A stretch of 64,000 nucleotides of DNA, taken from Escherichia coli O157 typing phage 15. This document shows positions 21,309 to 34,291 of this stretch, piece after piece. Made by a program: the position numbers and the translations under genes. The stretch is from the sequence record KP869113. The stretch is one strand, 5' to 3'. The first letter of the stretch is position 1, and the number at the start of each line of letters is the position of its first letter. The notes beneath the pieces were generated by a model that saw only the letters and a list, made by a program, of their open reading frames with translations, did no database searches and was not told the origin of the DNA.

Positions 21309-21814
21309 TTTCGATTCTCCAGTTTAGGAAGTGGGCTTGCTTGCCCGTCTGATGCAAATAGTACGTAAACTTGTTTGGCGTGTCAACGGTTTTTATTAAA
21401 TATTTTTTGTAAGGTTGGGAAATGAACGGGCGCGCACGACTACCACAAAACAGAACACAAATCAAGAATTATTTTTCAACCCGCTACAAATTTTTCTCTT
21501 GACTTTTGGGGAGAGGTGGAGTAAGAGGGGGAGAGGGGTTGGTCTGGCTCTCTATAAAAACCTACCTGCACGATTCTAAAATGATTTTTCTTGCCCGACC
21601 TGAGCGGGGTCTGCACGTTTTGAAAATGAAAAAGCTCTTTGGAGATTACCTGCACAGTTTGAAAATGAATTTTCTCTTTGGAGTTCAAAATTCTCTCTAC
21701 AGATTTCTCTACAGAACTCTACCTGCACAATCCTGAAATGAAAAAGCCCTCCTTACCTGAAAAATTTACCAGATAAAGAAGGCTTAGTCTATTGTGAATA
21801 TTATACAGAGTTTC
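21309..21814. repeat. non-coding region with four iteron-like direct repeats (CTGCACnnTTnTGAAAATGA) and a G-rich tract
   Basis: repeats at about 21566, 21611, 21648 and 21722; gggagaggtggagtaagagggggagagggg at 21511-21540; no credible ORF. Confidence 0.55.
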
Positions 21815-22600
21815 TTAGTTCTTTGCGTCTAAGAAGGTAACTTCTGGTGAAGAGAAGACCGTCTCGATATCCTCATCAGTTCTTGCATAAATATATGTAT
21901 CTGCATCACTGCCAAATGTTACGGCTATCCTGTGATTGCTCTTCGACAGGTGGGTAACTAGAGCGTTACTTAGAGACATCTTCTCAACCGGAGGGTTACT
22001 TTGATGTATCTTACCTTTTCTTCGTCTGAAGAGGGTAACTGTATCATCTTTGAACGTTACTACACCTGCAAAGTATTCTGGTTCACAGTAGTTATTCCAA
22101 CCTGAGCGTAACTTGTGGTACATCTCTCCTTCGTAGACATACAGATAAACATCTACACTCTTCATCACCTGATTAATGATAACTGTGACGGCTTGAGGGT
22201 CAAGTCCACCGATACCTGCACCAATCATAGGTAAACCAACCTTCTTCAACTGATTAACTTCACAGTATCTGTTAAGCTGTTTCAAAGATGACTCTAAAGC
22301 ACTGTATCGGGCATCTTTACCAGTCTTAAGCTGAGTGTAAAGGTTAGCTATACGACCTTGTTTTAAACGTGCTACAGAGAAATTACCCAGTAAATTTTCA
22401 CAGGGTTTGTGTCCTATACCACCTGCATACAGATAAACTTCTGTATCGGTCTCATATGCTTTTGGGTAAAGTTTAGAAATCTTGTCAGCGATACCTGCAC
22501 CCATTAAATTCATACAGTTGCAACCGTGACCGATGATGTCAAACTTACCTTTATCAAATGCGGCAAAGATATCACCATTAATTATTTTTACAATACCCAT
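21815..22600 (-). CDS. macro domain protein (ADP-ribose binding or hydrolase-like)
   Basis: N-terminus IINGDIF...DIIGHGCNCMNLMGAGIA resembles the macro-domain GDIT / N-x-x-N / G-x-G signature. Confidence 0.5.
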   Translation of the reverse strand: MGIVKIINGDIFAAFDKGKFDIIGHGCNCMNLMGAGIADKISKLYPKAYETDTEVYLYAGGIGHKPCENLLGNFSVARLKQGRIANLYTQLKTGKDARYSALESSLKQLNRYCEVNQLKKVGLPMIGAGIGGLDPQAVTVIINQVMKSVDVYLYVYEGEMYHKLRSGWNNYCEPEYFAGVVTFKDDTVTLFRRRKGKIHQSNPPVEKMSLSNALVTHLSKSNHRIAVTFGSDADTYIYARTDEDIETVFSSPEVTFLDAKN

Positions 22601-22801
22601 TTAACATCTCTCCCAAGATTCTTTGTCTTCTGAAGGTTTTACACGTTGTCCTTCGTGGTCTACCCAGATGCACCCACAACCTTCACAGATTACTGGCATT
22701 GCATAACCAGCTTTAAAGTCATCTTCAGTGATAAGACCTTTTAAGTCACCTGTATCACGTCCGAACATTTCGATAGAACAGTCTTTGCAGAAGTCAGCCA
22801 T
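22601..22801 (-). CDS. hypothetical Cys-rich small protein
   Basis: CKDC...CEGCGC motifs; start moved to internal Met with GAGG RBS. Confidence 0.4.
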   Translation of the reverse strand: MADFCKDCSIEMFGRDTGDLKGLITEDDFKAGYAMPVICEGCGCIWVDHEGQRVKPSEDKESWERC

Positions 22802-23021
22802 TGATAATTGCCTCTTGAATGATGATACCTTTACCACAACGGCTTTTAAAATCTTCCAACGGTTGGGAGATGAAGCCACGCAAGCAATCACTAAACACTA
22901 AGTTTTTCCTGTAGGCTATCACATCGTTTGCTGTAAACGGGATGACTTCATTTCTTCCAATGAATACTGCTGACCGGATGAGTTTCCGTGTCTTTTTATC
23001 TCTGGCTAGAATTACTCTCAT
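22794..23021 (-). CDS. hypothetical protein
   Basis: 75-aa ORF. Confidence 0.4.
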   Translation of the reverse strand: MRVILARDKKTRKLIRSAVFIGRNEVIPFTANDVIAYRKNLVFSDCLRGFISQPLEDFKSRCGKGIIIQEAIING

Positions 23022-23361
23022 AGTTTACCTTCTCAGTTAGCTCATATAAATCAACATGCTCAATACTATCAATGTTGATATCAATCTTTTTGAAGCGTTC
23101 TATCACTTCGTTGTCAGTCATCCATATCAGACACCAATGATTCTGAATGGATTCTTCAAGAAGGTCAACACAATCTTTAAAAGTTTTTGTATCACTTCTC
23201 GTTCCAACTACTGCGATTGTTCCATATAGCCACCCACCATTGCCATAAGATACTTGCGCTACGCCAACTTCTTTACCTTTCTCGTAGTAAACGGCTACAA
23301 AGTCTCTTCCATTAATCTGCATTTGTAAGTTCCTCTGTTGGTAATTCACCATTTTCAGCAA
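22996..23361 (-). CDS. hypothetical protein
   Basis: 121-aa ORF. Confidence 0.45.
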   Translation of the reverse strand: MLKMVNYQQRNLQMQINGRDFVAVYYEKGKEVGVAQVSYGNGGWLYGTIAVVGTRSDTKTFKDCVDLLEESIQNHWCLIWMTDNEVIERFKKIDINIDSIEHVDLYELTEKVNYESNSSQR

Positions 23362-23626
23362 AGTATTGAAGGTACGGCAACAACTCTTTTACCTGTTCTT
23401 GATTGAGCTTCATTCTTTGATTACCTATAAAATCTTTACCAACTAATGCTGGGATATCAAGTGTTTTCCAGCCATTATCTAGGTACTGAACAGAGACCTC
23501 TTTAGCACCTAACCAGATACATGGTTCGTATGATGAACTCTCTTGTAAAGTACAAATTTCCCCTTTAGCATCTTTAAATTCTGCATAAGAAAATCCACGA
23601 TTTGTTGGCTGGAATTGCATAATCAT
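23312..23626 (-). CDS. hypothetical protein
   Basis: 104-aa ORF. Confidence 0.45.
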   Translation of the reverse strand: MIMQFQPTNRGFSYAEFKDAKGEICTLQESSSYEPCIWLGAKEVSVQYLDNGWKTLDIPALVGKDFIGNQRMKLNQEQVKELLPYLQYFAENGELPTEELTNAD

Positions 23627-23895
23627 TTCCTCGTTTTAAGAACTGCTAAGATTTCTTTAGAGTCTGGTAGGAACCATGTGTAGTGATTCTCTTTGATTTC
23701 TGGATGAGTGTCAACCTTTATTTTGCACTCTTTACCAACATGCTTAAGCTGTGCTGTGATACCTTGCATAAAGATGTGACACATTACATTATCCATAATC
23801 GTAGGTAAGAAATCAATCCTCATGTAAGTATCTTTCGGTCTCGGTAGAAGTAAGTAACCTTCTGTGTAGAAAGTTTCATCATTACTTTGTGTCAT
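23623..23895 (-). CDS. hypothetical protein
   Basis: 90-aa ORF. Confidence 0.45.
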   Translation of the reverse strand: MTQSNDETFYTEGYLLLPRPKDTYMRIDFLPTIMDNVMCHIFMQGITAQLKHVGKECKIKVDTHPEIKENHYTWFLPDSKEILAVLKTRK

Positions 23896-24161
23896 TACTG
23901 CTTATTCCCTAATAAAATCATATCAATCAAGTTGTTAGCTTTCATAGTACACTGATAGTACCCGTCACGATAAAACTCAAGGGCTTCTGATAAGTCTGCA
24001 CCAGTGTTACCTTTGACAGCATATCTTACATCTTCCTGAGTGTACTTATCACTTTCACTTACTTGGGAGTTTTTGAATGTATTGCTCACTTTGTTCGTTG
24101 AACACCCTGACATAGTTATCAGTAACACAAACATTATAAAACTCTGGCTTAGTCTTTTCAT
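23895..24161 (-). CDS. lipoprotein, candidate o-spanin
   Basis: signal peptide with lipobox-like ITMSGC; overlaps the 3' end of the upstream TM protein gene by about 107 nt. Confidence 0.4.
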   Translation of the reverse strand: MKRLSQSFIMFVLLITMSGCSTNKVSNTFKNSQVSESDKYTQEDVRYAVKGNTGADLSEALEFYRDGYYQCTMKANNLIDMILLGNKQ

Positions 24162-24402
24162 ATGTCAGTACCTCTTTTGTGTGCTTATTCTTAGCAAGCA
24201 CGTCTTTCAAATCATTTTTGTAATTGGTGCTCAGTGTAGCTAATCCTTCCTGATAAGCATCTTTAGCAACACTTATTAGCTTCTGGTTGTTTAGCTCAGT
24301 TTCAGCAACTTGGTAGTCTCTGTAAGAGTATCCTCCCCAGACACCTGCCCCAACTAAGAAAACAATTATGAAAGTAGCTTGACAGAACTCTTTAAATGTC
24401 AT
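24055..24402 (-). CDS. N-terminal TM protein, candidate i-spanin
   Basis: single N-terminal TM helix FIIVFLVGAGVWGGY followed by a charged helical region; overlapped by the lipoprotein gene. Confidence 0.4.
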   Translation of the reverse strand: MTFKEFCQATFIIVFLVGAGVWGGYSYRDYQVAETELNNQKLISVAKDAYQEGLATLSTNYKNDLKDVLAKNKHTKEVLTYEKTKPEFYNVCVTDNYVRVFNEQSEQYIQKLPSK

Positions 24403-24419
24403 TTAACAATCTCCTGAAA

Positions 24420-24447
24420 TGAAAAAGGCTCCCGAAGGAGCCTGTAT
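24420..24447 (-). terminator. rho-independent terminator (minus strand)
   Basis: aggctcc-cgaa-ggagcct stem; A run on the plus strand gives a U tract on the minus transcript. Confidence 0.55.
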
Positions 24448-24454
24448 CTTAACC

Positions 24455-24934
24455 TTAACCGAGGACTTTAGCAAGGATATTTGCAGCCATCGAAGAAGCT
24501 TTTGCAGCAGCAACTACGCCAGCTTTGACAGTGCTATCCTTAATAGCAGATACCGTTGCAGCATCAGTAAAGAGATAAGTGATTGTTTTGGAACCACTTG
24601 TAAAGGAAAGCATAAGGGTAGTTTCCAGATTGAAAGAGCGATACGGAGCACCTTCTTTAACGATACCTTCAGCACCTAACTCTGAAGCCTTACCCATATC
24701 ATAGATAGTCATCAGGTTTTCTTTGTGTGCAGTCGTTGAACCAACACCTTTTACGTGCTTCTTAACGTTCAACAATGCACGATATTCACGAATGCTACCA
24801 TCAGCTTTTACATTAACAGCACGGAAAATTTTACCTTCAAAGTTACCTTGAATCATTTTACGAACTACTTCAGATTTGTTTGCCGTATCGTCCAGTGCTA
24901 CCGTAATGATATTGTTCATAAGTTCTTCTCTCAA
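24455..24934 (-). CDS. hypothetical protein
   Basis: 159-aa ORF. Confidence 0.5.
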   Translation of the reverse strand: MREELMNNIITVALDDTANKSEVVRKMIQGNFEGKIFRAVNVKADGSIREYRALLNVKKHVKGVGSTTAHKENLMTIYDMGKASELGAEGIVKEGAPYRSFNLETTLMLSFTSGSKTITYLFTDAATVSAIKDSTVKAGVVAAAKASSMAANILAKVLG

Positions 24935-25626
24935 TGTTTAACTAACATGGTTTTAATGTGTGGAAGGATTCTGTTTACCTTCTGAACATTCTTCTCTGTA
25001 TCTTCTATAAAGCATACTATATTAAAGTAAGGAAGAATGCAAGACTGAATCATCCTCACTTTCAAACTTTCTGCACTTATAGAGTTAGTTCCAAAACCAC
25101 GCATAAAAAGCAAGTAATCATGCTCTATATTGTGCCTTAAAAACATCTCAGTAGGTATTCTCTGAGATTCACCTCTTGCTGTCAAGAGTCCAACTGCTGC
25201 ATGATTTGCAATTGCATCAATAATGTTGAAAACATATGTTGGTTTTGCTCTTACAGAATCAAGAAGATTAGTGTACTGTGAGAATGACCCATCAGTCAAT
25301 TCCGTTGAGCAATCTTCGTGATTAAAATTTGTAAGAACACCATCAATATCTGCTAAGATGAGGTTACCTTTTTCTACAAGGTCTTTATTGACTATCACTA
25401 AACTATCACGCCTTACACCTATAGTTTGTCCAGTCTCTTTGTCCACAACGTTCACAATGGGTTCTGATGTGTGGAACTCTTCAAGTGAACATACAACCTC
25501 TCTTGCAGTGTCTTCAAAATCTCTGCACTGTTCTGGAGTCCATACACAGGAATCAAGACCTAACTCATGAGGATGCAAGTCATAAGCGTGGCACAGGACT
25601 TCATCAGACTTTCTTAATTTTTTCAT
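24931..25626 (-). CDS. HAD-superfamily phosphatase or nucleotidase-like protein
   Basis: LILADIDGVL (DxDG motif I), GLLTAR (motif II), later FIED acidic motif. Confidence 0.45.
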   Translation of the reverse strand: MKKLRKSDEVLCHAYDLHPHELGLDSCVWTPEQCRDFEDTAREVVCSLEEFHTSEPIVNVVDKETGQTIGVRRDSLVIVNKDLVEKGNLILADIDGVLTNFNHEDCSTELTDGSFSQYTNLLDSVRAKPTYVFNIIDAIANHAAVGLLTARGESQRIPTEMFLRHNIEHDYLLFMRGFGTNSISAESLKVRMIQSCILPYFNIVCFIEDTEKNVQKVNRILPHIKTMLVKH

Positions 25627-26152
25627 GATTTACCTTAGAAATGTTTGTTGCAAATTCACATTGAGCGATAACTTTCATATTGTTATAGACATCTTGAGAG
25701 TATTTCTTAGCTTTAGGGATTCTGTACGAATACCCAGCATTATATGATGCTAAAACTTTTTGTAAAGTCTTCTTTGACTTTGGGTGACCATGCACCTTCG
25801 TCCAAAACTCAAGCTCTTTATGTGTTTCTTTTGCGGCATAGTCAAAATCTTTTAAGAGTTTCTTTTTAGCAACATTAGGACTAATTTTGTTACGCTTTAC
25901 AACAGTCTTCAAGTGATTCTGGAAGATACCATAGTCATGGGTCTTTTTATTTTCTACCTTCAGACCTAACTCTGACTCTTGTAAGGCTATAGCTGCTAGA
26001 GTGATACCCCAACCTTTACCCATGTTATTCTCACCATACTGGTAAGCTTTTAACATGTTCACTTTTTGGCTAATTGATAGCTCTGGGCAGTCAACTGCAT
26101 AAGATAAGTGTGCTGTAAACATTAAGCACAAACCTAGAATCAATTTCTTCAT
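25604..26152 (-). CDS. secreted lytic transglycosylase (SLT domain)
   Basis: N-terminal signal peptide; AIALQESELG (catalytic E-S), YGIFQ, SYNAGYS motifs matching SLT family 1. Confidence 0.6.
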   Translation of the reverse strand: MKKLILGLCLMFTAHLSYAVDCPELSISQKVNMLKAYQYGENNMGKGWGITLAAIALQESELGLKVENKKTHDYGIFQNHLKTVVKRNKISPNVAKKKLLKDFDYAAKETHKELEFWTKVHGHPKSKKTLQKVLASYNAGYSYRIPKAKKYSQDVYNNMKVIAQCEFATNISKVNHEKIKKV

Positions 26153-26215
26153 TGGTTCTCCTGTTTAGTTTATCGTGACAACAATTATACAGCACTCTGC
26201 ACAAAATACAAATAA

Positions 26216-26240
26216 AAAAGGCCGCCGAAGCAGCCTTTTA
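26216..26240 (-). terminator. terminator-like hairpin
   Basis: aaaaaaggccgccgaagcagcctttt; hairpin with A and T runs on either side. Confidence 0.4.
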
Positions 26241-26252
26241 AGAAATTACTTA

Positions 26253-27362
26253 TTAGATTTCACGTTTACGTTGAGAGATGAGTTCACCAGCAGTGCCAAC
26301 GATGACATGCAAAGCTTCAGTCTTACCATCCCATGCTTCCAGCACTTTACGTTGATTATCAACGATTGCTGCAACTTCATAACGAGAGGAACGCATCTTC
26401 ATATCGTTGTAATCAGTTGGAACAGATACAACATCTCGTGGATGTACGCGAACCTTCAGGATTGTATCACCTGAGAAGCAACGAACATAATCCCAAGCAC
26501 CAACATGAAGACCTTGAGAGCAAGTTACGTTACGGTTATTATCAACCATCCAACGTGGCATTTCTACAATGTTACCCAAATCATTAGGCACTTTGTAGGT
26601 GTGAGAGTCAACCAGCTTGCCTTCACGAGTAGAGACTTTCTTCCAACCAATGATGTAGCCTTCTTCATCAATTTCAACATCAAGGTGAGATACAAATCCC
26701 CAAAGTTGTTCTACAGAATCTTTAGATGGGTTTTCCATCAGTTTTTCGAAGAACATTACAAGTCGTTCAAAACCTTTATCGCCAGTTTTCATCATGTGAA
26801 GAATACGGTCAACCAGAGTAGAACGCATCTCAACAGCACCGTAGAATAGCTTGTCACCTTTGATTGTGATAGCACCCTGAGTGAAGTTTTCGATAGACTT
26901 ACGAATGTTCATCAGTTCAAATGCTTTCTTGAACTCACCTTTCACAACATGAACTACAATCTCTTGATAGTTCGGATGAGTAGACTCAACAATTTCAGAT
27001 TCTGAACCATAAGTCATAATTACAGAATCACCAGTAATCATGTACTCAATCTTGTCATCTTTCTGCATAGCTTCGTGCAGTTTATTTACTGGAGCTTTCT
27101 GTACAGTGTCTTTAACGACCTTTTCAACTGGTTTGCCAGCTTTCTTTTTAAAAGTCTTAGCAAATTGTTTCAAAGTCTTCGTAGCTGGTGTAGAAGTTGC
27201 CTTCTTCTTGCCTTTTAAGGTTGCTTCATGACGCTCTACAGCACGACCAACTGAACGGGTTGAAGTATTGAACTTCTGTGCAATAGCTGTTTTAGTCAGC
27301 TTACCTTCTTTAACCAGTTTGTAAATTTCTGCGTCAATCTGTGCTTTAGTTTTAGTAGTCAT
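26253..27362 (-). CDS. hypothetical protein with N-terminal helix-turn-helix
   Basis: 369-aa ORF; KTAIAQKFNTSTRSVGRAVERH HTH-like; conserved C-terminal block GLHVGAWDYV...VRVHPRDVV. Confidence 0.5.
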   Translation of the reverse strand: MTTKTKAQIDAEIYKLVKEGKLTKTAIAQKFNTSTRSVGRAVERHEATLKGKKKATSTPATKTLKQFAKTFKKKAGKPVEKVVKDTVQKAPVNKLHEAMQKDDKIEYMITGDSVIMTYGSESEIVESTHPNYQEIVVHVVKGEFKKAFELMNIRKSIENFTQGAITIKGDKLFYGAVEMRSTLVDRILHMMKTGDKGFERLVMFFEKLMENPSKDSVEQLWGFVSHLDVEIDEEGYIIGWKKVSTREGKLVDSHTYKVPNDLGNIVEMPRWMVDNNRNVTCSQGLHVGAWDYVRCFSGDTILKVRVHPRDVVSVPTDYNDMKMRSSRYEVAAIVDNQRKVLEAWDGKTEALHVIVGTAGELISQRKREI

Positions 27363-27441
27363 CTTATTACTCTCTCTTGTTAGTTAATCAATCAATTTGT
27401 GAGGCTATTCTAAGGGGCTTCAAAGCCCCTTGTCAAACACT

Positions 27442-29808
27442 TTAATCGTAAATTGTTGTACCTTCTGGAACACATTTCACATTAAAGCCTAAAAACTTAC
27501 TCACTTCGATAGGTGATACTTTATTCCAATCTAAGTGTGAAAGCAAGAAGTTTTCTTGTTTTCTTTTTGAAAGATAGTTTGTCAGCTTGATAACCATGCG
27601 GTCACCTGCTTTCTTAATCTTTTTGTACAGTTTTGTGTCATTATCAAGGCATGTCTTCAAATCCTGAAGAACACTGATAGTGTAAGTGTATGCAAACGGT
27701 GCAGCCACATACTGAATCTTACCAAACATTGCCTCAACAGCATCTTCATTCCCTTCTAAGAAGATTGTCTTAATAGTATCCCTTGAATAACAATACCCGC
27801 GAGAAATCTTCCTGTTATTGAACGTAAAGTTTCTGGCAATAATCCAACTGCTTGTAAGGTCGAGGACACCATCCATGTAGATGCGTGTCATATACCTGTT
27901 ATGGTTAATCCAATGAACATCAGTTAAGCTGTCGTTCAAGAGCTTCTCATCTACTTCAATCCAGTCTTCTGGTATCTTTTTCCAATTTGCTTTTCGGAAA
28001 ACATAGACTGTCTTGCCTGTAACATTAGCAACTGACTTAGCTACATCCTCTGGAGATGAGCAAAAACATCTACCATCAACTGTGTCACCTACTGCCTTAA
28101 TATAAAGCTGAGGCTCTTCAATTGTGTCTAAGTCTTCTGACACCTCTTTGTATGAAGCTTTAGTTTCTGCTGGAACAGCTTTCCAGAGTTTTACAACACC
28201 CCTTACAGCTTCTTTACGCTGATAGTGGTGTTCCTTATCAGACATCTTCACAATCTTTAACAAGCTTTTATCAAGTTTGTGTAGATTGATTAAATCATCT
28301 AACTCTTTTTCAGTCGAGAATACAAAGACAATACCATTGTATCTGTGAAACAGATTTGACTCACTGGCGTAGTCTCGACATGCACCACGCAAAATTTGAT
28401 TGCGTCCTACAGTCTTCTCAGTACCGTTTTTATTGCGACGGTCATTAATCACGAACAAAAACTGTTCAATTTGGCTTTTACGCATTGCACCAAAGATATT
28501 GAACATACTTGCCTCTTGAGTGTAGGAAAGTGCTGTTGCACGAATCTTACTCTCTAAAGAGTTGAACTTGACATAAGCAACTGGGTCATAAAGATAATCT
28601 ACTTTAGGGATATTGTTCCCGTTCCTATCAACCTTAATATTGCCTTTACCGTCACGTTCATAAATGACTGAGCCGTCTTCTGCGTAGATAATTCCACGAC
28701 GAATGTTTAACAATTCTTCTTCCAGAGAATCAAGCTTAATGCCTCCCCACTCTAGCTTTGGACACACAGCATTAAACATCTCTCGTGAGTTCAAACGTAG
28801 CTCTGCATAAGCCTGTGCAGCATCCATGAGTGTAGGTTGGCTATTAACTTTCTTGATAACATCCTTTGTAATTGCTTCAGTTATCTTTTTGGTAGCCTCG
28901 ATGATAACATTTTTTGTCGTATCATTCATCTGCAATGCTTCACGAGAAGCTGCTATAGCAACTGAACCAATAGGCATGTAGATGTTTACAAGGTCTACGC
29001 TCCTACGGAAAAACTCTGGCAAGACTTTGAAGAAATCATCACCAAGTAATGCTTCCATGTTCACTGGATAGGCAATATTACCCATCACCACATTAAACTC
29101 TGTCCTGTTACCACTAGAACGCCAGCTTTGCTTATGAATCATGGCATCATAAACACCTTCTTCACGGGCAATGACGTTCATATCTGCTAATACATCGTCG
29201 TACTCAATATTACTTTCTGGTTTTACAGTGAAGTATGAGTACACATTTCCAGCTTCTTCAAAGAACTTTGAGATACGGTGGTCAGCAACTGCCACACGTA
29301 CAGCTAAACCATTAGGTTCTTTTGTTGGGTTAGTGGTCAGCTTAGTTACTTGAGGGATACCATTCTCAAGATAAACAGAGTACTTATTAACAACACCATC
29401 AACATAGCTAGATACTGTGAATGACTGAGCAATTGCAAATGGGGATTTTGAGCCGATACCCATTGCACCAATGTAGTCATTAGAGTCATTCTTCGTAGAA
29501 GCCCCGTAGTTTAGGTACAAACTCATAACTTTATCATGAGTCAATCCAGTTCCAAAATCACGAACTTCAAAGTAAGGCTCAAAACGAGTAGGTAAATGCA
29601 CATGGAACGGGATGTTCTCTTTTCCAGCTTCTTTCTGAGCATCTACTGCGTTACATGACAGTTCACGAATCACTGCCCTTTCTTTAAAGGTATATACACC
29701 AGAACTCAAAAGGCTGAACATCTCAGGTGTCATTGTAATCTGTGCTTGAGACGTCTCTAAAGAAGTTGAACTCTTAATCACTTCTGCGTGGTCATTTACC
29801 ATGCGCAT
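27442..29808 (-). CDS. rIIA-like protein with GHKL-type ATPase domain
   Basis: 788-aa ORF; N-terminal VRDFGTGLTHD ... IGAMGIGSKSPF (GHKL G-boxes). Confidence 0.5.
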   Translation of the reverse strand: MRMVNDHAEVIKSSTSLETSQAQITMTPEMFSLLSSGVYTFKERAVIRELSCNAVDAQKEAGKENIPFHVHLPTRFEPYFEVRDFGTGLTHDKVMSLYLNYGASTKNDSNDYIGAMGIGSKSPFAIAQSFTVSSYVDGVVNKYSVYLENGIPQVTKLTTNPTKEPNGLAVRVAVADHRISKFFEEAGNVYSYFTVKPESNIEYDDVLADMNVIAREEGVYDAMIHKQSWRSSGNRTEFNVVMGNIAYPVNMEALLGDDFFKVLPEFFRRSVDLVNIYMPIGSVAIAASREALQMNDTTKNVIIEATKKITEAITKDVIKKVNSQPTLMDAAQAYAELRLNSREMFNAVCPKLEWGGIKLDSLEEELLNIRRGIIYAEDGSVIYERDGKGNIKVDRNGNNIPKVDYLYDPVAYVKFNSLESKIRATALSYTQEASMFNIFGAMRKSQIEQFLFVINDRRNKNGTEKTVGRNQILRGACRDYASESNLFHRYNGIVFVFSTEKELDDLINLHKLDKSLLKIVKMSDKEHHYQRKEAVRGVVKLWKAVPAETKASYKEVSEDLDTIEEPQLYIKAVGDTVDGRCFCSSPEDVAKSVANVTGKTVYVFRKANWKKIPEDWIEVDEKLLNDSLTDVHWINHNRYMTRIYMDGVLDLTSSWIIARNFTFNNRKISRGYCYSRDTIKTIFLEGNEDAVEAMFGKIQYVAAPFAYTYTISVLQDLKTCLDNDTKLYKKIKKAGDRMVIKLTNYLSKRKQENFLLSHLDWNKVSPIEVSKFLGFNVKCVPEGTTIYD

Positions 29809-29994
29809 AATACTTTCCTCTTAGTTTACTGTTAAATTACTTATTAAACATTTTACCAGAACCACCACACATAGGGCAACAACCTGCTCTTGTATACCCT
29901 TCTCCGTTACAGTAGTCACACTTCTTGTGTTCTGCAAAGTACTTACAAAGAAGATAAACAAGGACTGCTACACTACCAAGTGACAGTAAAATTT

Positions 29995-30342
29995 CTACCC
30001 AATATGCTTGCATGACTCACCCCTCATGTTTTTGTAAAGGATAAAGCTTCTGTCATGGACGATACTTGTAGATACTGCAAAGTTACTTTCAAGCATCTGT
30101 TTGTTTGGATTGTAGAAGCTTTTTTTAAACTCGTCAAGTGCAAATTGGTGATGGTCTGGAAGACCTTTTACACAAACTTTTATTGTGATTGCTGCTGCAA
30201 TCTTGCCAGTCAGTTCTTCTTTAGCTGCTACTAAAATTTTGTTAAGGAACTTTTTACCATCTTCAGGTTTCTTAATGTTCTCCCAACGTTCTTCTAAGAT
30301 AATGTTGATGTTCATCTCTTTGATTTTCATAGTTTTCACCAA
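29995..30342 (-). CDS. hypothetical protein
   Basis: 115-aa ORF. Confidence 0.45.
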   Translation of the reverse strand: MVKTMKIKEMNINIILEERWENIKKPEDGKKFLNKILVAAKEELTGKIAAAITIKVCVKGLPDHHQFALDEFKKSFYNPNKQMLESNFAVSTSIVHDRSFILYKNMRGESCKHIG

Positions 30343-30680
30343 GTCCAGTTAATGAGTATGCCATCGAAACCTTTTGCTAAAGGTACACCCTCATGTTCAT
30401 AAAATTCAGGATTAACTTCGAATCCACGATTTTCAATATACTCTATCATGTATTTCATTACAAAGCTAATCTCTTCGTAGTCATCTGGGTCTCTGCCAAA
30501 GAACTGTTCTATGACAAACATACCTTCTTTTGTAGCAAATTGGCAGTGGTGATTGTAGATACCTTCACAAAACTTTTCAAACTTTTCTTTACCGAGAACT
30601 TTAAGGATGTCTGTATAGGCAACTTGTAAGTATTTCGGTTGTACAGGTTTATTGTTAAACCATATGGAAAGGTTGTCCAT
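30336..30680 (-). CDS. hypothetical protein
   Basis: 114-aa ORF. Confidence 0.45.
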   Translation of the reverse strand: MDNLSIWFNNKPVQPKYLQVAYTDILKVLGKEKFEKFCEGIYNHHCQFATKEGMFVIEQFFGRDPDDYEEISFVMKYMIEYIENRGFEVNPEFYEHEGVPLAKGFDGILINWTW

Positions 30681-30696
30681 AGCATTCTCCAGAAAT

Positions 30697-30724
30697 TAAA
30701 AAGGCTCCCGTAGGAGCCTCTTAT
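30697..30724 (-). terminator. rho-independent terminator (minus strand)
   Basis: aggctcc-cgta-ggagcct stem with A run on plus strand (U tract on minus). Confidence 0.5.
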
Positions 30725-30733
30725 CATATACTT

Positions 30734-32515
30734 TTAAAGCTGCTTGTCAATATTATTTCGAATATCACCAAGAGTTGTGTAACCGTACTGCTCAGAGTCG
30801 CTAAAGACTAAACGTAAAGCACAAGCTGGATGTTCAAGTGCATCTGCAAAGCTCTGGAATCCATAGCCATCTACAGCTTTCAAATTCTCACCATCCCACA
30901 TAGGTGCTACACCACCAAAGGCAGATTTCTTAACACCACTATCTGTTTTAGGGTCTTTTGCAAGCATAATCTCTTTGCCACCAATGCTTGCAAGAGTTGC
31001 TTTGACAGCAAATGCAAAGGTGTCACGAGTCATGTACTGGTAAGTGTAAGAGCCTACACCAAACACCACGTTAGAGCTTGCAAACCCCATTTCATACAGA
31101 CGCTTCAGGATTTCGTTTGCACGTTCCAACGTGATAGAGTCGCCATAGATAAGTCCAATGTGCTCATCCAGTACCTTAAAACCTTTAGAGTTGATAGTTC
31201 CTCCAAAGATGTTATACAAGGTCTTAATAGCTCCATCAATCTCTGCTACAGGGCGTGTTACAACGTTTGCAGAACCAACCATATAAGCGTTCTTCAACAT
31301 CACTGTATCAGCAACTTCAAAGTCTTCTCTGTCAACAACCATTTCGTAGCCTTCTGACAGTAGCCATCCAGCAATACCATAGTTGATGTTTTCAAGCTTC
31401 ATGTTAAGAACAGCATTCAACATTGTGTCACTGACTTCCAGCTTGCTTAGGTGCTCGTAATAAGCCTTCTTAGCACATTCTAAGTGGATTGCTTTATAAC
31501 CTGTGACAATATGTACAGGGTCTCCAGAGTCAGGGCGAATTACCAGTTTGCCATCACGTTCCATAATTTCTTTACGAAGTGCTGGTAAGATTTCTGACAC
31601 AGTTCTCCAGAAGTTATAAGTATCTGAAACAATACTTGCAATACCTGTTGGGTAAGTTTCTGTTAAGAAACGACGGAAGGTTTGTAACTCACCTTTAAAG
31701 CGTCTTTCTTCTTCAATCAACTCATTACCACCTTCCCAAGCAATGTTTGCACACATTACAGAGTGCTCAGTGGCTGGTACAGAGCTACCAATATCAGAGA
31801 TTGGGTAGGACTGTCCATAGATTCGTTTAGCCGTGTATACAGCAGGGAAGCTATCAGTCCCTTTAAAGCTGGTTAAGTGACCTACAGCGTTAAATGCGTC
31901 ATCAGTAAAGCCGGACATACCACGCATAGCAAAATCATGGCACTGATAAGGTAAATGTAAGTCATTGTCACAAGTAAGGTCAGCCCACTTCTTACAGATG
32001 CGTTTGTAATGCAATGCAATAGTTGCAATGGTGCAAGCCTTCCAAATTTCAGCAGAGAAAGCATCTTCCAGATAACCTGCTACCCAATGAAAACCTGAAA
32101 CAGTGTTCTGAAAGACAATCATCGGGACACGCATTGGAACAACTGTGCCTTCTTCTACAGCGTATACTTCAACTGGTAGATAACCTAAGTCGTGAAGTGC
32201 TTCCCAATGCTCTCGACCGATAGCATCTTTACCCAGAACACCATTCATGACTTCTAAGATTTCATCAATGGCTTCTTTTTTATCACGTTCAAAGAAAGTG
32301 GCATTCCAGTGGTCTATCAAGTAATCTTTAACAAAACGTTGAATACCAAAAGCCACTACACCGTCAATTGCTAAAGGGCTGTTAAACCATTTATCACTAC
32401 GTGGTGTCAGGTTGAACATCAAGTATTCTGTTGCACTAGGATACTGGTAAACATGACCAGATTTGTAAGCATCTGCATTTAAACCTGCTGGTACTGCATA
32501 AAGTGATTTAGTCAT
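30734..32515 (-). CDS. nadV: nicotinamide phosphoribosyltransferase (Nampt/NadV)
   Basis: 593-aa ORF; N-terminal DAYKSGHVYQYP matches the Nampt DSYKVTHYKQYP signature; correct length. Confidence 0.8.
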   Translation of the reverse strand: MTKSLYAVPAGLNADAYKSGHVYQYPSATEYLMFNLTPRSDKWFNSPLAIDGVVAFGIQRFVKDYLIDHWNATFFERDKKEAIDEILEVMNGVLGKDAIGREHWEALHDLGYLPVEVYAVEEGTVVPMRVPMIVFQNTVSGFHWVAGYLEDAFSAEIWKACTIATIALHYKRICKKWADLTCDNDLHLPYQCHDFAMRGMSGFTDDAFNAVGHLTSFKGTDSFPAVYTAKRIYGQSYPISDIGSSVPATEHSVMCANIAWEGGNELIEEERRFKGELQTFRRFLTETYPTGIASIVSDTYNFWRTVSEILPALRKEIMERDGKLVIRPDSGDPVHIVTGYKAIHLECAKKAYYEHLSKLEVSDTMLNAVLNMKLENINYGIAGWLLSEGYEMVVDREDFEVADTVMLKNAYMVGSANVVTRPVAEIDGAIKTLYNIFGGTINSKGFKVLDEHIGLIYGDSITLERANEILKRLYEMGFASSNVVFGVGSYTYQYMTRDTFAFAVKATLASIGGKEIMLAKDPKTDSGVKKSAFGGVAPMWDGENLKAVDGYGFQSFADALEHPACALRLVFSDSEQYGYTTLGDIRNNIDKQL

Positions 32516-32560
32516 CTTTTAATCTCTCTCAAAATGGGGCTTTTAAGCCCCTATAAAGTT

Positions 32561-33457
32561 TCAATCAAGGTTTGCTACAGTAACTTGACCATAATGTGTT
32601 AAGCCACGGTCTTTAGCTTCCCCTAAAGAGTTTGTAGTGTAGATATGGTCAATACCATTGTCAAGAAGGTTTTCAACATCTTTAGAGAAGATACCATGTG
32701 TTACATAGAGTTCCACACGTTTTGTACCTGCTTCACGGAGATGCTTAGCTGCTTCTATGAAGGTTCGACCACCATCACAGATATCATCCAGAATCATGAC
32801 GGTTTTATCTGTCAAATCAACATCATCAAGGATTCGCATACCAGTAATTTCACCAGTCTTAAGGTTACGCACCTTAGACATTGTGATATATGGTTTATCC
32901 ACCTCTTTAGCGGTCTCTGCAACCTTCTTAGCAGCACCTGCATCTGGGGCTACTAAGTAATCAACCAGTGGGTCATTTGCATAGTGGACTGCAATCTCCT
33001 TTTGAGGAATACTCTGGAAGCAGTTAAACAGGTTATCTGGTACATAGCTGTGAGGGTCAACTGCACAGACTGCGCCAAATCCCATTGCATTAATCTGTTT
33101 AGCAAAAACCTTTAAAGCTGCTGCGTCACCTTTAAACATGTGACGGTCATATCGTGCATTTGGTAAGTAGTAAAAGATGACAGTCTTTAAAGCATAATCA
33201 TGAGGAATTAAATCATCAATTGCTTCTTTAGCAAGTGCCACAGCAAACAATGTGTCCTTGTCATAACCTTTTACAATCATAATCACATTGTTGATGGATG
33301 ATGCTGCATAAGCAGTAAAATCAACAAACTCTGGCGAAAAGTGTCCACCAATCTCACCAGAAGGGAATTGGACGATGTTAAACTCTTCTTCATGAGTCCC
33401 TTTAGTTGGTGAATGAACTGTAACACGGATAGATGTTTTCATAGTTTTCTCTCTCAA
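32561..33457 (-). CDS. prs: ribose-phosphate pyrophosphokinase (PRPP synthetase)-like
   Basis: 298-aa ORF; PRPP-binding VMILDDICDGGRT motif; adjacent to Nampt, which consumes PRPP. Confidence 0.6.
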   Translation of the reverse strand: MREKTMKTSIRVTVHSPTKGTHEEEFNIVQFPSGEIGGHFSPEFVDFTAYAASSINNVIMIVKGYDKDTLFAVALAKEAIDDLIPHDYALKTVIFYYLPNARYDRHMFKGDAAALKVFAKQINAMGFGAVCAVDPHSYVPDNLFNCFQSIPQKEIAVHYANDPLVDYLVAPDAGAAKKVAETAKEVDKPYITMSKVRNLKTGEITGMRILDDVDLTDKTVMILDDICDGGRTFIEAAKHLREAGTKRVELYVTHGIFSKDVENLLDNGIDHIYTTNSLGEAKDRGLTHYGQVTVANLD

Positions 33458-33732
33458 TCAAAAGTTACGTTTGTTACTGCCATTGCAGATTTGCATTTTG
33501 CAGGGTCTACAACGTGATAAAGTACACTACAGTTACCTGTGCTGTCTGGTACAGGTTTAACCCATTGTTGCTTGACAGTTGGTTCGCCTAAGTCTTTGTA
33601 AGAACCATCTGTAAAGTTGTTTACCATCTCAAGTGCAATTGGCTCTGGAACATGACCACGTATCATGTACATTTCACAACCATTACCTCCTTCACTGACT
33701 AATGGTAAAATCTCCCACTTTTCTTTAGTCAT
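33454..33732 (-). CDS. hypothetical protein
   Basis: 92-aa ORF. Confidence 0.4.
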   Translation of the reverse strand: MTKEKWEILPLVSEGGNGCEMYMIRGHVPEPIALEMVNNFTDGSYKDLGEPTVKQQWVKPVPDSTGNCSVLYHVVDPAKCKSAMAVTNVTFD

Positions 33733-34240
33733 TATAAGTTGCCCTATAAACTGTCTCGAACTTCAACAGGAGAGATATTGCCAAATCTGTATAGTTGTTG
33801 TCAAGCACATCTGGCATATTATTTTTGATATATTTCTCTTGCTCTTCATAGGTCATCTTAGGGATACTTAGGAGGCTATCTCCTTGCTTCTGGTTATCAG
33901 CTTTAGTTTGGATAAACCAGTTTGCACAGTGATGTTCACCACCTTTTGTAACAGGTTTGTGATGACCTAATGTAAATATTTGCTTACCCGTATACCTGCA
34001 AAGATTGTTCAGTGTTGCAATGGTGTTCTTCACAACACACCATTCATACAGGTTATCTATTGTGTAGTGTGGGTAATAACGGACAAGTGCTCTTTCACGT
34101 AAGTTACCACGATTCCAAAGAACCATGTGATTAGAATTTGAAGGGTCATATTTGTGGGAGTCTATAAACTCTTGACGCTCATCAAAGCTGAGTCTTAGAA
34201 CTGACATTGCAACCGAACGTTTCAGGTTTGACAGATACAT
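33725..34240 (-). CDS. HNH endonuclease-like protein
   Basis: LGHHKPVTKGGEHHCANWFIQTKADNQ resembles the HNH core. Confidence 0.45.
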   Translation of the reverse strand: MYLSNLKRSVAMSVLRLSFDERQEFIDSHKYDPSNSNHMVLWNRGNLRERALVRYYPHYTIDNLYEWCVVKNTIATLNNLCRYTGKQIFTLGHHKPVTKGGEHHCANWFIQTKADNQKQGDSLLSIPKMTYEEQEKYIKNNMPDVLDNNYTDLAISLLLKFETVYRATYND

Positions 34241-34291
34241 TTTACCTCCAAAATAAAAAGGGAACCTTTACAGTCCCCTTATAGTATCTGT

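Follow-up and report, generated by a model that had tools for sequence, protein, structure and literature searches.

Two adjacent genes of Escherichia coli O157 typing phage 15 (KP869113), 32561-33442 and 30734-32515, almost certainly encode Adps and Namat, the enzymes of the published NARP1 counter-defence pathway. The window is the whole 64,000-nucleotide stretch of this record that was analyzed. The NARP1 call is drawn from orthology together with the conservation of catalytic and specificity residues, and a Felixounavirus NARP1 is very likely the right explanation overall. The genes lie in a Felixounavirus genome, and the pair was 100% identical to that of Escherichia typing phage 1. The NARP1 core is already known, and the finding is largely ordinary because the pair has been published as NARP1. 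A macro-domain protein encoded farther downstream may be linked to NARP1 as a distal Adpp.

All three open reading frames proposed in the earlier note were confirmed on the minus strand at their positions, apart from one start site. The ORF 32561-33457 (298 aa) begins with a TTG that is probably not the true adps start. A better start lies 15 nt downstream, at the ATG at 33442, which follows GAGAGA and is also used in RefSeq, Bas63, and the published tables. The features are as follows.

34258..34280, minus strand: terminator-like hairpin from a consensus scan, upstream of ORFs 33725-34240 and 33454-33732; predicted 5' boundary of the NARP1 unit
32561..33442, minus strand: putative adps, ADP-ribose pyrophosphokinase (Prs-like), NARP1 first enzyme, 293 aa from ATG
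30734..32515, minus strand: putative namat, nicotinamide ADPR-transferase (Nampt-like), NARP1 second enzyme, 593 aa
30699..30722, minus strand: terminator-like hairpin just past the Namat stop codon (10-bp stem, 5 G-C pairs, then a T-run); predicted 3' end of the NARP1 transcription unit
21815-22600, minus strand: macro-protein gene, 261 aa, Pfam Macro
22130..22600, minus strand: macro domain (residues ~1-157), Poa1p/Adpp-like by Pfam, Gary Adpp homology, and fold
21818..22129, minus strand: C-terminal domain (residues ~158-261), mainly beta-stranded
21744..21785, minus strand: terminator-like hairpin from a consensus scan, just past the macro-gene stop codon

Identity of the Adps and Namat genes

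The Adps protein exceeded the gathering cut-offs of Pfam Pribosyltran and Pribosyl_synth, and its closest PDB relatives were Prs enzymes at an E value of only 1e-17. Residue K190 aligned with K162 of SPbetaL1 and K192 of Gary, lysines that have been mutated experimentally, and the DD motif (D219-D220) and the PP loop DDICDGGRT were conserved. The protein is listed as KP869100_00096 in the supplementary Adps table of Osterman 2024.

The Namat protein matched Pfam NAPRTase (E 7.5e-35) and NAMPT_N, and contains a lineage-specific insertion of ~77 aa at residues ~351-427. Its top PDB matches were the SPbetaL1 Namat structures 9w5w/9w5x (E 6e-128), and human Nampt matched at ~1e-40. It shared 37-43% identity with verified Namats, compared with 26% for the KVP40 Nampt. 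In the catalytic core, H251 aligned with H243 of Gary and R327 with R306 of SPbetaL1. The aromatics of the ADPR-PP selectivity clamp were all present, with the clamp helix GSYTYQY (Y490, Y494) at the position of GGGLLQQ in the KVP40 Nampt, and the clamp loop carrying K42-W43. The supplementary Namat table of Osterman 2024 lists this protein as KP869100_00095, labelled 'Adps-associated'.

The locus was syntenic with that of phage Bas63, with protein identities of 77% for Adps (Bas63_0079), 98% for Namat (Bas63_0080), and 97% for the macro protein. Deletion of Bas63 genes 79-80 sensitised the phage to SIR2-HerA, and ADPR-PP builds up during infection (10.1101/2024.02.11.579819). The in-phage NARP1 phenotype was shown with the Bas63 orthologues, while the chemistry was shown for SPbetaL1, whose purified enzymes made NAD+ from ADPR, nicotinamide, and ATP (10.1101/2024.02.11.579819). 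The identity of just 77% to the Bas63 Adps counts against the core assignment; the N-terminal ~180 aa correspond to a second, diverged allele, with a DNA identity of 65-75% over ~500 bp.

The proposed NAD+ pathway and the PRPP-based alternative

In the proposed mechanism, a defence system such as SIR2-HerA, type I Thoeris, DSR1/2, or SEFIR would split NAD+ into ADP-ribose and nicotinamide. Adps would then attach the beta-gamma pyrophosphate from ATP at the 1'' position of ADPR, yielding ADPR-PP, and Namat would let nicotinamide displace the pyrophosphate of ADPR-PP to form NAD+ directly. Such a route would run without PRPP, NMN, or NMNAT. The absence of an NMNAT from the window, remarked in the earlier note, held for the whole 88.5-kb genome, where the recommended search for NMNAT and Nudix genes, together with NadR and PnuC, found none. 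Since Adps and Namat would convert ADPR and nicotinamide straight into NAD+ with the use of ATP, the missing NMNAT would leave no gap.

The earlier note had proposed a counter-defence role against NAD+-depleting systems, which stands, through a PRPP synthetase and a Nampt, which does not: its 'Prs' is very probably Adps and its 'Nampt' Namat. In effect, the Prs-like protein appeared to be a different phosphoribosyltransferase, the outcome that the note had named as speaking against it. In the PRPP-based scheme, the phage would make PRPP via Prs and NMN via Nampt, and host NadR or PncC/NadD would finish an incomplete NARP2-type salvage. The Pfam, NCBIfam, and PHROG names are indeed those of Prs and Nampt, and the general subfamily model TIGR01251 was barely passed (120.6 bits against 113); however, the score fell short of all nine Prs equivalog models, in one case with 103 bits where 296 are required. 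In vitro, Namat can produce NMN when PRPP is supplied and ADPR-PP is missing (10.1101/2024.02.11.579819), but given both substrates it yields NAD+ only. The Namat-specific clamp aromatics in the protein of the window, lacking in the KVP40 Nampt, also argue against the scheme, as does the fact that Nampt-clade phage proteins accompany an NMNAT, which this phage genome lacks. Osterman et al. set out from the hypothesis of a route from PRPP through NMN to host salvage and rejected it for the 77%- and 98%-identical Bas63 orthologues. This route is largely refuted already for those proteins, and we regard it as very improbable here.

The macro-domain protein and its possible roles

The macro-domain call in the earlier note was upheld by profile search (Pfam Macro over residues 25-141, at 32.3 bits where the cut-off is 22) and by macro-fold matches of an AlphaFold model (pLDDT 89.6) to TARG1 (TM 0.86), DarG (0.81), and Poa1p (0.77); the suggested link to ADP-ribose derivatives was reasonable. 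The fold resembled TARG1 no less than Poa1p. The macro domain aligned with Adpp of Vibrio phage Gary over the full Adpp length (27% identity, E 2e-13), and H25 and N28, invariant in 29 homologues, corresponded to H24 and N27 of Adpp, the two residues altered by mutation in the aRES study. The TARG1 residues K84/D125, the Lys/Asp dyad of TARG1 and DarG, were replaced by Q90/G131, and Q90 was invariant. The domain is probably an ADP-ribose-1''-phosphate phosphatase. The C-terminal domain is an orphan restricted to Felixounavirus-like (Ounavirinae) phages. The protein had a higher identity to T-even tk.4 (35%) than to Gary Adpp.

The macro gene had been assigned to the same gene block as the pair. 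Both are on one strand, but a distance of 8.1 kb and 15 annotated genes separates Namat from the macro gene downstream of it, and terminator-like hairpins lie in between (30722-30699, 26239-26216, and 24443-24426). These came from a consensus scan only, in which the total count was not above the shuffled expectation. The macro gene is thus predicted to belong to a transcription unit separate from NARP1, and it lies outside the published operational limit of two or fewer genes from NARP1. The two ORFs preceding adps (33725-34240 and 33454-33732) encode conserved phage proteins, phrog_3500 and phrog_4726.

Of 1328 phage records with Adps, ~908 (68%) carried the macro family somewhere in the genome, compared to a reported 15% with the macro gene adjacent to NARP1; among Adps-negative records the share was 3.9%. 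A control gene, NrdG, was also enriched ~11-fold, and therefore much of the macro/Adps co-occurrence reflects lineage and genome size. Macro relatives at 27-30% identity lie within the NARP1 operons of Thalassavirus and Pakpunavirus. Conversely, ~1939 phage records, mostly T-even-like (tk.4 beside vs), have the macro family without any Adps, so the family has a NARP1-independent use.

We put at about even the chance that the protein is an Adpp-like ADPR-1''-phosphate phosphatase feeding NARP1, which would amount to NARP1-AP in dispersed form. Its substrate would be the product of RES-type (aRES) NAD+ phosphorolysis, converted back into ADPR for NARP1; no aRad1-type aRES inhibitor is encoded in the genome. 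If so, the distant macro gene would be an uncounted helper, and NARP1 would overcome a second type of NAD+-destroying defence as well.

A possible but less favoured reading is that the protein is a general ADP-ribose-derivative hydrolase with the same job as T-even tk.4, its presence in a phage with NARP1 being coincidental. Candidate jobs are de-ADP-ribosylating protein, DNA, or RNA hit by host ADP-ribosyltransferase defences (DarT, CmdT-like) and breaking down an ADPR-based signal. The Adps-free records, the higher identity to tk.4, the separate predicted transcription unit, and the extra C-terminal domain, which suggests a macromolecular or other partner, are consistent with it. The best fold and profile matches also include the glycohydrolases TARG1 and DarG, and there was a sub-threshold NCBIfam DarG match; however, this match reached 47.5 bits where 250 are required, the catalytic Lys and Asp are replaced, and the His and Asn needed for Adpp function are invariant. 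Co-occurrence with Adps also exceeded that of the control gene, at 61% against 26% outside the Felixounaviruses and 75/75 against 3/75 in Klebsiella phages. It is unlikely that the protein, instead of countering aRES, is a NARP1 housekeeping recycler whose 1''-phosphatase would return ADPR-PP decay products to ADPR. Spontaneous decay of ADPR-PP yields ADPR-cyclic-phosphate and ADPR-monophosphate, and another enzyme would possibly open the ring first. ADPR-cyclic-phosphate, likely such a decay product, was detected in Bas63-infected SIR2-HerA cells, ADPR-P forms from ADPR-PP, and recycling would explain the frequency of the family in NARP1 phages whatever its position. The remainder is drawn from the role of yeast Poa1p, which acts downstream of Appr>p. 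Against recycling, a cyclic phosphodiesterase was not identified in the genome, SPbetaL1 NARP1 functions without any macro protein, and phages with the macro gene but without Adps are left unexplained.

Comparison with known systems

The reference NARP1 systems are genes 79-80 of Bas63 (JohannRWettstein) and those of the Bacillus phage SPbetaL1 (Osterman et al. 2024, 10.1101/2024.02.11.579819), and NARP1 structures are available (PMC12774641, PMC13586617). Bas63 shares with the phage of the window its genus, gene order, catalytic Lys/His/Arg, and selectivity-clamp residues, but not the N-terminal allele of Adps. NARP2 of Vibrio phage KVP40 (Nampt NadV and NMNAT-Nudix NatV) likewise restores NAD+ via a Nampt-family enzyme, but needs PRPP and an NMNAT.

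NARP1-AP is the Adps-Adpp-Namat system of Vibrio phage Gary (Osterman et al. 2026, 10.64898/2026.01.28.702374), and the phage of the window also carries a Poa1p-like macro protein with H24/N27 equivalents alongside Adps and Namat. The Felixounaviruses are absent from the list of NARP1-associated macro proteins in that study (10.64898/2026.01.28.702374). Gary Adpp is a single-domain protein of 158 aa encoded between adps and namat, whereas the macro protein here has 261 aa, an orphan C-terminal domain, a gene 15 genes away, and 27% identity. Yeast Poa1p, human TARG1/OARD1, and the macro domain of the DarG antitoxin belong to the same macro-fold subgroup (TM 0.77-0.86), but all three are without this C-terminal domain. 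TARG1 and DarG differ further in using the catalytic Lys/Asp in place of Q90/G131, and Poa1p converts ADPR-1''-P to ADPR, the activity proposed for the macro protein of the window.

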